The notes under the pieces are model-generated. The model was not told the origin of the DNA, ran no database searches, and was given only the letters and a program-made list of their open reading frames with translations. From contig OZ024749.1 in NCBI GenBank assembly GCA_964016885.1, positions 22,134,001 through 22,198,000 of the forward strand: 64,000 nucleotides of DNA, written 5' to 3'. Source of the stretch: Eledone cirrhosa. Its lineage: Eukaryota. The first letter of the stretch is position 1; each line of letters begins with the position of its first letter. This document shows positions 1 through 53,759 of this stretch, piece after piece. Both the position numbers and the translations under genes were made by a program.

Positions 1-65
1 CTTTCTTCTATCCTACGCCATTTTGTTTCTGTGTGTGTGTTGTGTGCTCAGTTTGCGCATGTGCA

Positions 66-491
66 AAAACACTTATTAGCAAGACATACCCGTTCCAAAG
101 ACCCTCATGTATAGATAAGAAATGTATAACCTGTAAAATAAGCCCCCATATTAACTGTAAAACTAGAAATGTAGTGTATAGCATAAGATGTACTGAAGGA
201 CAATGTAGAAACAAAAATATAGTGTACATAGGTGAGACAGCTCGTAGTATAGGGGAACGAATAAATGAACACTGGCGAGACCTCCAAGATAATAAAGAAT
301 CATCTGTGCTCTACCAACATGCTAAGATAGAACACAGGGGTAGATTAGAGAGCATAGAAATAAAAATAGAATCCACGCACAGAAAAGACGCAATGTTTAG
401 GCAAATTACAGAGGCAGTAAGCATAAAAGAATTAAAACCAAAATTAAATAGAAAATATGAGTGGAACAGCAACATCACAACTTACAATTAA
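66..491 (+). pseudogene. PLE C-terminal GIY-YIG endonuclease fragment
   Basis: CIDKKCITC linker, NVVYSIRC..C..YIGETARSIGERINEH, H, R..TEA..I...KPKLN: the PLE GIY-YIG/CCHH pattern. Confidence 0.9.
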
Positions 492-768
492 GGACAAAAT
501 GAAAACACACACACACATAGAACAAACAACTTACAATTGAAAACACACACAAAATGAAAACACACACAGGACAAAATGAAAACACACACACACATAGAAC
601 AAACAACCAACCAACAATAAATAAATAAACAAATAGAAAAATGAACACAAACACACACAGACACCCGGATGTGGCACATGCGCAAACTGAGCACACAACA
701 CACACACAGAAACAAAATGGCGTAGGATAGAAGAAAGAAAAGGCACAGAAACGAAGAAAGGAATCCCC

Positions 769-813
769 AGTCACTGAAGAGGTCACAGAGTGTGTGACGA
801 AAGGACTATGACT
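769..813 (+). ncRNA. Type I minimal hammerhead ribozyme (family A)
   Basis: AGTCA-CTGAAGA-G-GTCAC(agagtgt)GTGAC-GAAA-GGAC-TA-TGACT; stems I and II pair. Confidence 0.85.
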
Positions 814-1038
814 ATATATATAAACAACTATCTGGTTGTGGAACCAACCAACCAGAAATTTATAATTTATAAGTTTGTAGATTTGTAAATTTATGAATTT
901 ATAAATATATAATAAATTGAAGTGAAAGCAACTGGTGCGTGTGTTTCTTATTGGCAACATGACCCTCCCAAAGTATAACAATATCGGTTTCAACACACGA
1001 TTTCAGATAAAGAATCTTGCTAAACAAATTCAGAAACG

Positions 1039-1079
<41 letters not shown>

Positions 1080-7445: not shown

Positions 7446-7982
7446 AACCACCTAGGTACTATGACATAACCTGTGTATTTGCTGGCATTAGCGTACATCT
7501 GTGCGCTTATGTTAGTAGATATATTAAATTATCTATATTTATCTCCAAATCACTGATTTGTCGAGCAAACCTGCCAAAACCACTTCTAAATTTTTTTTGG
7601 GGGTGTTAGTAGGCGTCTGTCATCTTACCATCCCATTCCTACTGACTAGCCTCTGTGTCACGTGATTGATTCTTTAGAATCGGCCATTTGACCAGTGGCA
7701 GTGAGAAATTTCGGTGCCTGGAATCCAGTCCTCGATAGCTGTTCCATTTACCGAATTATTATTATTTTTATATGAGTCCCCAGTGTCTGCGCATTGCCTG
7801 GAGACTTGGCTGAGAATAGATCTCCCTGATGACACAATGAAATTCTCAACAGTTCATTACGTAACTGTCTTTATCCCATTGCAGAAACTAATTAGTTGGA
7901 GTGAAAATTTAAGTAAGTTAATTTTTTTTTTTTTTTTTTTTTCTTATTTTACGTCTTTTATATATATATATATATAGATATA

Positions 7983-8265
7983 GATAGGTAAATATACACG
8001 GGTGTGTATGATTGTGTATAGAAGATTATATTAATAAGAGGAATTCCAACTTTGTCTGATTTACTCGTTTTATTTACAATCCTTTAAAATATATAATGGT
8101 ATTATAATGAAATAGTATGATAGAATATTAAATTCTAAGTGTTCAATTAACACTTAGAATTTAATATTCTATCATACTATTTCATTATAATACCATTATA
8201 TATTTTAAAGGATTGTAAATAAAACGAGTAAATCAGACAAAGTTAGAATTCCTCTTATTAATATA
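7983..8265. mobile_element. Fold-back palindrome of the Neptune-like PLE 3' end
   Basis: 8141-8265 matches about 34589-34712. About 7983-8143 is the reverse complement of about 34597-34757. (TA)n on both sides. Confidence 0.9.
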
Positions 8266-8342
8266 TATATATATATATATGGATATATATATATATATAT
8301 ACAAATGGATATATATATATATATCCATATATATATATATAT

Positions 8343-8392
<50 letters not shown>

Positions 8393-8468
8393 ATATATAT
8401 ATATATATATATATATCCATATATATATATATATATGGATATATATATATCCATATATATATATATAT

Positions 8469-8528
<60 letters not shown>

Positions 8529-8535
8529 ACATATA

Positions 8536-10146
<1,611 letters not shown>

Positions 10147-16112: not shown

Positions 16113-16872
16113 AATTAAGTTAAAAATGTACATCTACATATGCATACTGAAATACTAGTGTGTATATGAATACACACACGTATACATATGTAGGTGTACC
16201 AAGTCTTTCGCTGGTCGCTTTGTAAAGCGACCAGTGAAAGACTTGGTACACCTACATATGTATACGTGTGTGTATTCATATACACACTAGTATTTCAGTA
16301 TGCATATGTAGATGTACATTTTTAACTTAATTGTTTAAGCGTCAGTCATACAAAAGTGAGTTACAAACGAAACGAAATTTAATTTCGTTTCGTTATTTGT
16401 TTTTATCGTCTCCGCTGAACCGGTGCGTACTCACACTCTATGCAAATTAGTCTGCCCACTACTAATTTTCATAGAAAAAGCATATAACGATATGTGCTTT
16501 TACAATTCTCCAGAAAGGCCGGTAGATAGGTAAATATTGCTGATGAGTTGTAACAACAACGAAACAAGTTCAATATTCCTTGTCTGGCTTTCTGGAGAAT
16601 AGGGGGAAGGTGTTCCCCCTAAAAACCAGTATGACTCTAAAAACCGGTTTGTCTGTGTGTTTACATACAGAATAGTTGGGCCGCTCACTGTAAAGCGACC
16701 AGTGAAAGACTTGGTACACCTACATATGTATACGTGTGTGTATTCATATACACACTAGTATTTCAGTATGCATATGTAGGTGTACATTTTTAACTTAATT
16801 GTTTAAGCGTCAGTCATACAAAAGTGAGTTACAAACGAAACGAAATTTAATTTCGTTTCGTTATTTGTTTTT
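16113..16872. mobile_element. Non-coding HHR element, 468 bp unit, partial tandem plus inverted arm
   Basis: tgtaaagcgaccagtg at 16221 and 16689. 16113-16221 is the reverse complement of 16224-16332. (TA)n flanks. Confidence 0.88.
16533..16577 (+). ncRNA. Type I minimal hammerhead
   Basis: AATATTG-CTGATGA-GTTGT(aaca)ACAAC-GAAA-CAAG-TT-CAATATT; 7 bp stem I and 5 bp stem II pair perfectly. Confidence 0.92.
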
Positions 16873-24712: not shown

Positions 24713-24746
<34 letters not shown>

Positions 24747-24803
24747 TATTAAAAAAATAATGAATAAACAAAGAAACAGTTCCTTATAGTAAACAAAAAA
24801 AGT

Positions 24804-24944
24804 TCATTATTTTACGATCGTTTCTAGGACATATATGTGTTAGAATTGGTATGCATATTCAAAAGATCTATGTACAAAATTATACAAACTATCAGAGGGA
24901 ATATACATACCTTCACATATATATGCTGTCTTCAGAAATAATGA
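24804..24944 (-). ncRNA. Hammerhead with about 100 nt stem II (mirror copy)
   Basis: Reverse complement of 31214-31354. Confidence 0.75.
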
Positions 24945-25646
24945 TGCTTGTTTATTGATAATAACAACAATTCAATACAATAGGTCTGTTTGGGAACAGA
25001 TTTTAAATAGACCAATGAAATAGAGATTGAAATTCATCAAGAAAATATAGTTAGGTGTGTGTATATGTATGTAAATACGCTCACAGATGTGCATATATGT
25101 GTATGCTCATATGTATACGTATAGTGAAAAAGTGTGTGTAAATCTAAAATTTAGGGCTAATGTATCTGTATGTCTGTAATCAACAGACGGAATAGATACA
25201 TCATAAGTATATGAATATTGAGGCGCTCACATAAACACGCCCACACACACTTACATTTAGATGCGGAAGTAAAAGAGGTAAGGGAGTATAGTAATTAAAG
25301 GAAAGTGTCAATCTCGACATACTTATAAAAATGTATCAATAAATTAGAAATAAAAAATTTTTAGAAGGAAAAAACTCAAGAAAAGAAGACAAAAAAAGAC
25401 AAAAAGGGGGGGTACATACATACACAGACACGCATGTCTCACAAAAGAAACATAAAAAAACATAAAAGAGAGACATAAAATTATACATGCTTATATACAC
25501 ACGCACATTTACACATCCATACGTTCGATACGTATATACATACACACACACATACACATACTTACACTCACGCATATTGACCTGTTTGTATGCACACGCA
25601 TAAAAATAAGTAAAACATATACCCATACATATATATATATATACAC

Positions 25647-30507: not shown

Positions 30508-31213
30508 TGTATATATATATATGTATGGGTATATGTTTTACTTATTTTTATGCGTGTGCATACAAACAGGTCAATATGCGTGAGTGTAAGTATGTGTATG
30601 TGTGTGTGTATGTATATACGTATCGAACGTATGGATGTGTAAATGTGCGTGTGTATATAAGCATGTATAATTTTATGTCTCTCTTTTATGTTTTTTTATG
30701 TTTCTTTTGTGAGACATGCGTGTCTGTGTATGTATGTACCCCCCCCCCCCCTTTTTTGTCTTTTTTTGTCTTCTTTTCTTGAGTTTTTTCCTTCTAAAAA
30801 TTTTTTATTTCTAAGTTATTGATACATTTTTATAAATATGTCGAGATTGACACTTTCCTTTGATTACTATACTCCCTTACCTCTTTTACTTCCGCATCTA
30901 AATGTAAGTGTGTGTGGGCGTGTTTATGTGAGCGCCTCAATATTCATATACTTATGATGTATCTATTCCGTCTGTTGATTACAGACATACAGATACATTA
31001 GCCCTAAATTTTAGATTTACACACACTTTTTCACTATACGTATACATATGAGCATACACATATATGCACATCTGTGAGCGTATTTACATACATATACACA
31101 CACCTAACTATATTTTCTTGATGAATTTCAATCTCTATTTCATTGGTCTATTCAAAATCTGTTCCCAAACAGACCTATTGTATTGAATTGTTGTTATTAT
31201 CAATAAACAAGCA

Positions 31214-31354
31214 TCATTATTTCTGAAGACAGCATATATATGTGAAGGTATGTATATTCCCTCTGATAGTTTGTATAATTTTGTACATAGATCTTTTGAA
31301 TATGCATACCAATTCTAACACATATATGTCCTAGAAACGATCGTAAAATAATGA
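31214..31354 (+). ncRNA. Type I hammerhead with about 100 nt stem II
   Basis: TCATTATTT-CTGAAGA-[catatatatgtg..ggtatgtatattc...gaatatgcatacc..cacatatatg]-GAAA-CGATCG-TA-AAATAATGA; perfect 9 bp stem I. Confidence 0.78.
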
Positions 31355-31548
31355 ACTTTTTTTGTTTAATATAAGGAACTGTTTCTTTGTTTATTCATTA
31401 TTTTTTTAATAATTTATCTTGACTCTGTTTTCCGTTTATCTTTCACCGAAAGTGGTTTTTGAATGCATCTCTTCTTTTAATGATATCCGGATTACATTGA
31501 GTTCTTCATACGGATTGGACACTACCGTAAACTTTTGGTAGATTTATC

Positions 31549-31619
<71 letters not shown>

Positions 31620-31621
<2 letters not shown>

Positions 31622-34600
31622 AGATCTCAACAGAGATTACCCACAAGAAACTGGGCGAAAAAACGATCTAAACCTGAAAGCAAACCTAGGTCATTTCCCC
31701 AGATTGTTAAAAATAATGCTAACAAGAAATGGAAAAATAATATACAGAATACCAAAAATAGGACAAAATACATAACGAAACCAAATATAATATCACGACC
31801 AAATGTTCATCAAGCGAACACCAACAGGAATATAAATCCTGAACAGAGAAAAATCCATTTTTTAACGTCAGGACAACAAAAATCGGAAAAAGAAAAACTC
31901 CAGGAGGAAACATACCCAAAACAACTGTACACGTAGATCCTAAAAATAATTAATTTATCCAAAAGAGATCTTGACAATGATGAAATGCAAATTCTGTCAA
32001 AAGGACTGAAATTCACACCGACTCCAACAGTCAATCACCAAGAACTGAAGGAGGATACCCAAGAATTCTGTCGAAAATTACGTCTTGTAGAATTCTTCGC
32101 TGATAAAAATAATGAGAGTGATGAATCACTAGTAAAGAATAAATCAAATTTCACTCCGCCAAAAGGAAGAAATATCTATCTCGACCAATAAATTGACATC
32201 CTGTCTAAATTTCCTCTTAGACGTAATACTAATGTTAGGCCAAACATTAACAAATCAGAAATGTCTGCACTTATACGTATACAAAATTATAAAACAATAA
32301 TAATTAAACAAGCAGATCAAGGGTGTGCAGTTGTTATAATGGATACTGAATACTACAAGGATTTGGTTGAGGAACAACTGAAAGACACAACATTCTATCA
32401 TGAAATACCGTCAAATATAGACCACAACATCATGAAGAAGATCAACAACCTGGCTTCAAAATACCACAACTCATTTACTGATAAGGAAAGAGACTACATC
32501 ACCAATTTTGAGCCAAAACCCAGCAACCTGTATGGCCTACCGAAAGTTCATAAGTCAAAATAAATACAACTGGCAGTAAGAGAACAAAACAGTGAGTACA
32601 TTAAATTACTACACCCAAAAGACTTAAAACTTAGACCTATTATAGCTGGTCAAACATGCCCACCCCACCGTCTAAGCAATATTGTTGACATTATTTTGAA
32701 ACCACTATGTATTCACATACCCAGTTTCATCCGGGATGATATCGACTTCCTGTCCCATCTTCCCCAAACCACGGAAACGAATTCACTTCTACTTAGTTTT
32801 GATGTGGTAAGCCTTTACACCAACATTACACATGATTTAGGAATAAAGGCGGTTAAATACTGGGTGGAAAAACATAGAGAAGTGATTCCCATCAGATTCA
32901 CAGCGCCATTTATATTAGACGCAGTTAAACTTATTCTGGAAAACAACACTTTCTTCTTCAATGGAAAGAATTACATCCAAACTAGAGGCACAGCGATGGG
33001 AACGAAGTTTGCTCCCGTTTACGCGAACTCTGTAATGGGATACTTAGAACAACAACTCAACCAAGAAATAGAGGAAAAATATAGTACTGACTTTAGAAAG
33101 TACATTGAAAAATCTTGGAAGAGATACCTTGACGACTGTTTCATCATCTGGACAGAATATCTAGATACTCTGGATGAGTTCAATATCCTCCTGAATAACT
33201 TACACCCATCTCTCCAATTCACAAAAGTGATGAGTAGGACCAAATTACCATTCCTAGATATAATTATAATCAAAAACGACACCACCATTACCACGGATAT
33301 ATATTATAAACACAGACACCCATCAATATCTGAATTTTAAGTCGTTGCATCCACCTCATACAAAACGCAACATCCCATACTGCCTAGCCAGAAGAATTTG
33401 TACCATTGTAGAAGATACGAATACCAGGTACAAACGCCTAACAGAACTAAGAGAATGTTTGCTCAAACAAAAATACCCATTTCTACTTATAGAAAATGGC
33501 ATACAGCGGGCTATAAAAATACCTATACAACAACTTAGGACAACCCAAGGAAGAAGAAACCAAGAACTGGTCATACCATTTATAATGACACACAACCCAT
33601 GTCACCAGAATATCTTCAACACTGCCAAAGCAAACCTACCGATCATTGCTCAAAGTAATGAATTAAAAGGCTTAATCACAGATCGATCTTTGACTCTTAG
33701 TAAAAGACAGCCAAAAAATTTGAAGCAATTACTAACAAAAGCAAAGTTTGACCTTAACAACAAAGACCAATCATTCACTGTATCTAAATGCAATGATAGT
33801 CGATGCGGCACATGTCAATCCATACACGCCGGTCAATATATGAAAACAAAAACTGGAAAAATATTCCCAAATGCAAATATGAACTGCAAAAGCAGAAATC
33901 TAATTTACTGCATTAAATGCCCGAATTGTGAAGAACTATATGTCGGTCAAACTGGAAATGCACTATCGGAACGTGCACGGGTACACCGTCAGCAAATTAG
34001 AGACCCAAATGTCCGTCAGATACCCCTAAGTAACCATCTAGCAACATGTGGTCAGGGAATATTTATAATATTCCCATTCTACAAATTACACAGTCCAAGT
34101 GAAATCAAGAGAAAAATCAAAGAAAAGAATTTTATTGATAAATTCAAACCCAAGCTAAATGAACAATAATAACACTTAGGAGTATTACTTCTACTATGAC
34201 TATGACTACGACCATGTCGACTACGACCACTAACAACAACAACAACATTAATAATAATAATAAAAGTGATGTTGATGGTGATGATTACTAGAAAATGCTA
34301 TTTTCATCATTTCTAAAAATAGCAAAACGATTGATGCTTTGGATAGGATCAATTATTGGTCGTTAGACATGCTCAACCAATCGTGACGCTTAAACCAATC
34401 AGCTTTAGTAATCCAGTGAAACTACACACCGATTGGTCGAAATACAGTTTGCAAGATTTAGCATTCTGGAGACACTTATCACTGTATATAAGGTACAAAA
34501 TTTACCCATCTCATTACAGTTGAAAATTGCAAACTTGACTGTCACCACACATTATGAACCTGAAGATTGCGAAAGCATGAAAGTACTTGTTCAATTAACA

Positions 34601-34749
34601 CTTAACATTTAATATTCTATCATACTATTTCATTATAATACCATTATAAATTTTAAAGAATTGTAAATAAAACGAGTAAATCAGACAAAGTTGGAATTCC
34701 TCTTATTAATATAATCTTCTATACACAATCATACACACCCGTGTATATT

Positions 34750-34757
<8 letters not shown>
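31620..34757 (+). mobile_element. Near-full-length Neptune-like PLE (stops and frameshifts)
   Basis: IINLS..LSKGLKFTP, IIKQADQG, LYGLPKVHK, LRPII, FDVVSLYTNI, GTAMGTKFAP, RYLDDCF, LPFLDI, CNDSRCGTC, LIYCIKC..YVGQTG, FKPKLN. Confidence 0.92.
34555..34593 (+). ncRNA. Type I minimal hammerhead of the Neptune-like PLE
   Basis: TGAAC-CTGAAGA-T-TGC(gaaa)GCA-T-GAAA-GTAC-TT-GTTCA; palindromic AAGTACTT; predicted cut between 34588 and 34589. Confidence 0.85.
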
Positions 34758-53164: not shown

Positions 53165-53219
53165 ACTGCTATATGTATTTCGGTGACAGCCATCTTTGGC
53201 TGTGACCTCTTCAGGCAGT
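53165..53219 (-). ncRNA. Type I minimal hammerhead in a non-coding island (53115-53762)
   Basis: Reverse complement: ACTGC-CTGAAGA-GGT(c)ACAGCCA(aaga)TGGCTGT(c)ACC-GAAA-TACATA-TA-GCAGT. Confidence 0.88.
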
Positions 53220-53759
53220 CCGAATTAGTGTGGTAGAGACGAGTACACATGTTGTTGAGGTGTTTAACTTTGTCAATACTTTGATATGCCCAGTTCCTGG
53301 TTGGGTTGTTATTTCACTGAGGAACTGGAATCATATGAATTTAAACAAACGAATTTCAGCGTCAAAGGAATCTTTTCCTCTCATTAGTCAGTTGTGAGAA
53401 CATTCCTCAGTCAAAAGTCTATAGAAATTTGTTCTGAGGCGAGGGAATCTGTAGTGGTTGTTCTTGTTATTGTTAAGTACATCTGACCTCTACTCTTATG
53501 TTGGTAGTGGTGTTGGTTTTGGAGTCAGCTCAAACAAATGATAAAGTGGTAGAAGGAATAAGATGGTAAAAGAACAAAATAAAATAAGATAATCAAATAA
53601 AATGTGTGTGTTATACCCAATCTCAATGTTAGAAAGATTTGTAAGGTCACTCCTCCCATTGGTCAGTTGTGAGAGCATTCCTCAGTCAAAAGTCTATAGA
53701 AATTCTTTCTGGGGTGAGGCCACCTGTAGTGTTTGTTTTTGCTATAAAAATATAAAAAT

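Follow-up and report, generated by a model that had tools for sequence, protein, structure and literature searches.

In L1 twin priming, both strands of the target prime cDNA synthesis on one RNA, and microhomology joins the two products into an inversion. For Penelope-like elements, Arkhipova et al. 2013 (PMC3846280; this and the other papers are cited here from the accessible parts of their text) proposed that inverted copies arise by self-priming on an antisense template. The Poseidon element of the green anole has been studied in vitro (Frangieh et al. 2024, PMC11167929): two adjacent internal starts of reverse transcription delimit the tail, cutting and extension take place on both strands of the target, a dimer is predicted and the hammerhead is protein-assisted. 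In the accessible part of the same work, no RNA-seq reads were found at the Poseidon cut, cleavage was not needed in vitro and uncut RNA was the dominant substrate. Cervera and de la Pena 2014 (PMC4209133) stated, in the text available, that in vivo evidence for hammerhead cleavage was absent, and proposed circular RNA templates. Both in vivo cutting by Penelope-like hammerheads and the origin of inverted insertions with a one-sided tail in telomerase-related Penelope-like elements are stated as open in the accessible literature.

Here we analysed a window of 64,000 nt from Eledone cirrhosa (assembly GCA_964016885.1, contig OZ024749.1, positions 22,134,001 to 22,198,000), which contains a reference element and a short head-to-head insertion of the same family. 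Positions are numbered from the predicted hammerhead cut, so that +1 is window position 34589, 0 is 34588 and -72 is 34516. The features are as follows:

31620 to 34757, plus strand: reference Penelope-like element of apparent Neptune type, 5'-truncated and broken
32564 to 34169, plus strand: RT and GIY-YIG frames (PF00078, E 1.2e-7; PF01541, E 1.2e-6), with a CX4CXXC linker motif and CxxC between GIY and YIG
34485 to 34491, plus strand: TATATAA, a TATA-like box; the main turning point follows 31 nt downstream
34516, plus strand: position -72, the commonest 5' boundary of copies and probably the transcription start
34555 to 34593, plus strand: hammerhead of minimal type I with its predicted cut at 34588/34589; stem III AAGTACTT would pair between two copies
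34714 to 34757, plus strand: tail, between two likely reverse-transcription starts, 34713 and about 34751-34757
7960 to 7982, no strand: (TA)n left flank, on the other side of the hairpin
7983 to 8143, minus strand: inverted arm, matching 34597-34757; its cDNA was likely started at the tail end, with the top strand of the target as primer
7983 to 8026, minus strand: tail, on the inverted arm only, equal to 34714-34757 and reaching about 40 nt past the sense arm
8140 to 8148, no strand: junction, with a 4-nt microhomology TGTT (8140-8143) and a 5-nt loop (8144-8148); 8141 is +1 of the predicted cut
8141 to 8265, plus strand: sense arm, equal to 34589-34713; its cDNA was likely started at the internal site 34713, with the bottom strand of the target as primer
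8266 to 8636, no strand: (TA)n target on the right, with the target-site duplication not readable

In the reference element an RT domain is followed by a C-terminal GIY-YIG domain, both above cut-off (PF00078, PF01541), although the frames are broken. Its translation contains a CCHH motif, LIYCIKCPNCEELYVG with the two cysteines between GIY and YIG, followed by two histidines, and such a motif, with cysteines in this position, is a feature of endonuclease-bearing Penelope-like elements (PMC8557442). The RT-endonuclease linker reads CNDSRCGTC, which fits CX2-5CXXC, and the (TA)n flanks correspond to microsatellite targeting, both being Neptune traits. Judged from its sequence, the element is therefore assigned to the Neptune type on the RT and GIY-YIG frames, the CX4CXXC linker and the CxxC, with the reservation that the linker motif is common to Neptune and Nematis. 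Compared with solved structures, the RT frame gave no match. The family shows a pLTR with a hammerhead, inverted copies and a one-sided tail. Elements of this kind have been described before, and so have their inverted copies, tails and minimal hammerheads. Just upstream of it lies an inverted pair of 417 bp with 99.5% identity (31001-31417 and 24741-25157).

The hammerhead was read by hand. Stem I is TGAAC/GTTCA, the core is CTGAAGA plus GAAA, stem II has 3 bp and stem III is the palindrome AGTACT; the elements CUGANGA, GAAA and NUH (triplet CUU) are thus all present together with stems I and II and the palindromic stem III, and the canonical cut position is 34588/34589, in agreement with the initial annotation. 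A search of the whole window with Rfam at gathering score returned no hammerhead match; minimal motifs lack stem III. As a monomer the hammerhead folds no better than shuffled sequences (z 0.16), and when two copies are co-folded the stem III regions are predicted to pair between molecules (-18 kcal/mol). Across 130 copies, the hammerhead columns -29..+5 vary by 0-5%, which is no lower than most of the flanking columns. A pyrimidine-rich stretch plus CAG, like a splice acceptor, occurs at 34519/34520, four bases after the main 5' boundary, and in a Drosophila element the end of an intron adjoins its hammerhead (PMC4209133). Splicing was considered as the cause of the boundary at 34516 and rejected, because the copies retain the four bases upstream of the acceptor-like site.

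At 7983 to 8265 the two arms pair over 117 bp with one mismatch (8245). The layout first described holds, with the sense arm beginning at GTTCA (8141) and the left arm being the reverse complement from 34597, and so does the caveat on TGTT, which at 8140-8143 is compatible with either arm and is followed by a 5-nt loop (8144-8148). Two features had been missed: the left arm is about 40 nt longer than the right one (7983-8026, corresponding to 34714-34757), and the usual turning point of the family's insertions lies not at the cut but 72 nt upstream of it.

The junction had been regarded as a single case, whereas its exact 21-mer has 35 copies in the genome and the reversed-pattern control has none. 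The word from +1 to +16 has 7441 exact genomic matches. Head-to-head hairpins were counted by the gap between two 14-nt anchors, which misses copies with a changed anchor, and numbered 159 (gap 20-80), 95 (gap 81-135) and 1501 (gap 136-240). Short head-to-head insertions have two sharp turning points: about 85% of them turn near 34516, and about 7% do so at the hammerhead cut. The class of 1501 turns at or just after -72, and 1948 matches have a changed base directly upstream of -72. Given the TATA-like box 31 nt before it, position 34516 is likely to be the transcription start, and the -72 peak behind this box serves as an internal control for junctions marking RNA 5' ends. Two further lines were set aside. 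A cap signature at 34516 is not claimed: a G precedes the boundary in 19/100 rows among the matches listed (by eye), but a blunt join of the two arms would account for about half of these, and in joins that lack a hairpin C is no rarer than G. Peaks of sequencing read ends at 34596, 34525, 34649 and 34695-34698, one of which sits near the hammerhead cut, coincide with AATT in every case; they most likely stem from restriction cutting during library preparation and were not used.

Concerning the cut itself, we examined 50 hairpins listed of the 159 with a gap of 20-80. The further-reaching arm ends at -1..+5 in 37 of these 50. The ends are distributed as -1:7, 0:10, +1:1, +2:1, +3:12, +4:1 and +5:5 (one duplicate pair included); another 8 lie at +7..+22 and 5 at -3 or beyond. 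The peak thus spans 7 nt, and the form most often seen within it reaches only +3 (12 of the 50 listed). Scaled to the genome, cut-site insertions number about 118, or 7% of 1755 short hairpins, a lower bound because pairs with gaps over 135 were left uncounted. The peak stands about 10-20 times above the per-base background on both sides, the upstream background being taken from the hairpins that end at -8..-54 (15 of 50 listed of the 95 with a gap of 81-135, by eye). The best nearby microhomology, an 8-bp palindrome at -7..0, accounts for 2 of 50 hairpins. More than 10 junction forms are present among the cut-site junctions, including a blunt palindrome centred on the cut at locus L264.

Junctions were also surveyed beyond hairpins. 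This survey gave 197 matches; 100 were listed, 12 of which were recognised by eye as intact copies carrying small indels and left out, and of the 88 examined 82 were distinct and 9 more were flagged as intact, leaving 73 rows. Among these listed matches the joins fall at +1:14, 0:24, -1:9, -2:1, -3:8, -4:5, -5:1, -6:1, -7:7 and -8:3. Positions +1, 0 and -1 thus hold 47/73 rows against an expected 0.31 (p 5e-9), and 32/58 once the TGTT hairpins are removed (p 1e-4), where 0.31 is our own estimate allowing for chance extension into T; the T at 0 and at -1 can come from the template or from microhomology alike. The upstream edge is sharp in hairpins and, more weakly, in non-hairpin joins. In a control window at -31..-21, which had 106 matches (27 of the 100 listed intact by eye), there are about 7 junctions per position, compared with about 37 at +1/0. 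Direct joins of (TA)n at +1/0 make up 6 of the 13 listed (p 0.008), or about 12 genome-wide, only about double the figure for the strongest background site (5 rows at -22, which has a (TA)n microhomology of its own), and at L230, L249, L252 and L260 (TA)n is joined to +1 without upstream overlap. A survey anchored on (TA)n was set aside, since overlapping matches meant that its 100 listed rows covered no more than 14 loci, too small a number, and the absence of upstream joins that it suggested is contradicted by the control window at -31..-21. In L214, L219 and L245, +1 comes immediately after position +48 without a change of direction, giving a short direct repeat from the cut, which may be a template jump back after the end of the RNA. 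In L035, L036, L039, L046, L099 and L100 the junctions consist of two or three short templated pieces, as by repeated priming and release at cDNA ends.

The window also contains a second high-copy Penelope-like family, here called family B (1-1042, plus strand; hammerhead 769-813, predicted cut 808/809), and the tail end of another copy of it at 8634-8700 on the minus strand. Its anatomy is alike, with hairpins, a one-sided tail and a start-like boundary about 100 nt above the cut, near which there are what we take to be NRF1- and YY1-like motifs instead of a TATA box. Used as a replicate, with 70 of 100 listed rows picked for a boundary near the cut, it gave a weak excess of junctions: +1:2, 0:6 and -1:7, against 18 at -2..-8, that is 15/33 at +1/0/-1 versus 0.31 expected (17/39, p 0.066, in a tally by eye). 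Its positions +5..+12 form a TATA run that mimics the target and takes up most junctions. At least three more minimal hammerhead families were seen, at 16532-16577 (plus strand), at about 53170-53220 (minus strand), in L171 and in L045; the one near 16539 also adjoins inverted copies.

The tail lies on exactly one arm in 104 of 111 distinct hairpins. Of 222 outer arm ends, 91 are at 34713 and the majority of the rest lie at 34748-34756 or within the repeat that follows; in this survey a few 5' reach values were mis-extended by indels. When only cut-site hairpins are considered, the tail is on the further-reaching arm in 23 and on the other arm in 24, with 6 ties, 1 with both and 1 with none; in the exact-junction loci (30 of 35, by eye) it is on the inverted arm in 15, on the sense arm in 14 and on both in 1. 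The two arms share 30 rare variants, in 23 of 108 loci, compared with 0.7 (maximum 5) in 500 shuffles, and they differ by 1.9%, compared with 4.5% in shuffled pairs. Pairs in which both arms end at the cut outnumber pairs of start and cut by about 22 to 5 (by eye), while independent RNAs would favour start/cut over cut/cut by about 25 to 1. Because of the shared variants and this excess, both arms likely copy one RNA, although shared variants are also compatible with copy-back or gene conversion.

We therefore read the insertion at 7983 to 8265, with a probability of roughly 0.6, as head-to-head short copies of one self-cut RNA, with the junction at the cut and the arms separately reverse-transcribed and then joined. 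As the junctions peak at the predicted cut with a sharp upstream edge, copying of the 3' cleavage product is the best reading of them, and they probably do record cleavage in vivo. Two cDNAs from one RNA, primed by both target strands and joined at their ends, are likely the simplest fit to the arms. In such a scheme the RNA would start at 34516 and a minority of molecules would be cut at 34588/34589 by the hammerhead acting as a dimer. A protein dimer would then nick both strands of a (TA)n target, as may be supposed from another clade (Frangieh et al.), and cDNA would begin at two neighbouring RNA sites, 34713 and the tail end. Both copies would reach the same 5' end, the end positions observed being mostly the start site and in about 7% the cut. 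Finally, the cDNA 3' ends would be joined by 0-8 nt of microhomology or by a template jump, and each joined cDNA would template the second strand of the other. The initial annotation had seen at 7983 to 8265 a fossil of in vivo self-cleavage: the pile-up at the predicted cut speaks for this part, yet the route would be a minor one (about 7% of short hairpins).

Other readings of the same junctions must be weighed. The RNA could be uncut, with RT stalling at the foot of a folded ribozyme dimer and the local TGTT/AACA repeat capturing the stalled ends. We consider this unlikely, even though in the dimer stem III would form an 8-bp duplex over -7..0 with its foot at +1 (predicted co-fold -18 kcal/mol), so that a stall predicts the same edge as cleavage and DNA alone therefore cannot separate the two. 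A 4-bp hairpin already present in the uncut sequence, the weak replicate in family B and the low in vitro activity of such ribozymes (PMC4209133) also favour a stall; however, the duplex is short and AU-rich, more than 90% of cDNAs pass it, no comparable peak is found inside stem II or at -31..-21, and the peak remains without the TGTT class. The mechanism first proposed for 7983 to 8265, a snap-back of one cDNA at its cut end that primes the second strand, appears rather improbable, also when a later endonuclease trimming of one arm is added to account for the tail difference. Both arms do have rare variants in common, the junction is geometrically feasible there with a 3-4 bp stem, snap-back is seen after full-length cDNA with R2 proteins (PMC11371274), and Craig et al. 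attribute the tail to endonuclease resolution (PMC8557442). Nevertheless a second arm made in this way would be a subset of the first cDNA, while the tail is on the inverted arm only at 7983 to 8265 and on the shorter-reaching arm in 24/47; because a copy-back arm cannot hold what its template lacks, snap-back fails there without an extra cut and rejoining, which would be required in all 24, 7983 to 8265 included. Moreover, the two outer ends agree with the pair of sites at which a relative initiates in vitro (PMC11167929). Among 33 simple joins, 25 are geometrically possible by snap-back and 11 would require a 1-bp primer for it, but 8 are impossible with an intramolecular loop of at least 3 nt, as is the blunt palindrome of L264.

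The position +1 could also be a second, weaker transcription start and not a cut. The T-G step at +1 fits a pyrimidine-purine start, and the main peak shows that starts leave such marks; this reading is nonetheless very improbable, there being no TATA-like box 30 nt upstream of +1, and the match to the canonical cut nucleotide would have to be a coincidence. Least credible of all is that a few master hairpins were re-copied, or that the hairpins are assembly fold-back artefacts: local duplicates exist (L042/L043 and L059/L060) and L031 lies inside a near-perfect palindrome of 4.8 kb, but copies of the exact junction come from both subfamilies (18 and 12 of 30) and show both tail polarities, more than 10 junction forms exist, the arms differ by 1.9% and the flanks are unlike. 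The L031 palindrome (G000:C1:21871560-21881190) is centred on a cut-site hairpin and has 2 mismatches in its first 4 kb, and it may be a fold-back made in assembly, or the hairpin may have seeded a large inverted duplication.

Returning to the preferred reading, two cDNAs copied from one self-cut RNA, we put forward more tentatively the general statement that Penelope-like copies might be a base-resolution record of RNA 5' ends, from which germ-line cutting by the minimal hammerhead and integration of cut RNA could be read. The inverted repeat with its one-sided tail, which defines the class, would then be the work of a dimeric RT that copies one sense RNA twice, starting from both target strands, and joins the two cDNAs head-to-head. 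The data suggest that hammerhead cleavage is a side route and not a required step. In the accessible literature we found no report of Penelope-like copies ending at the cut and no two-cDNA model for Penelope-like elements, and neither is present in the accessible text of bioRxiv 10.64898/2026.07.22.740005. Mapping of junctions makes any repeat-rich assembly a test of both questions, and the two-primer model is concrete and can be checked in the existing in vitro system.

In comparison with L1 twin priming, where the arms cover different parts of the RNA, both arms here cover the same part and a palindrome results. Inverted pLTR insertions described previously (PMC3846280, PMC8557442) are, as here, head-to-head truncated copies with a tail of 30-40 bp at one end and (TA)n targets; they were explained by self-priming or endonuclease resolution, whereas the turning points found here are the two sense-RNA 5' ends and therefore argue for a sense template. 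The hammerheads agree with those of PMC4209133 in the type I minimal motif and the palindromic stem III in the pLTR, but the peak points to copied linear 3' products instead of circular templates. The accessible text on Poseidon (PMC11167929) gives no inverted-arm model, and here a minority of genomic copies, of a Neptune-type element, end at the cut. As for R2, its genomic 5' junctions record where the HDV-like ribozyme cuts (Eickbush et al. 2013, PMC3774820), and microhomology and extra bases are found at the cDNA end (PMC3774820, PMC11371274), as in our case; however, in R2 the cut produces the usual 5' end and a snap-back arm contains no more than part of the cDNA, while here the cut would be a side route and the second arm separately primed.
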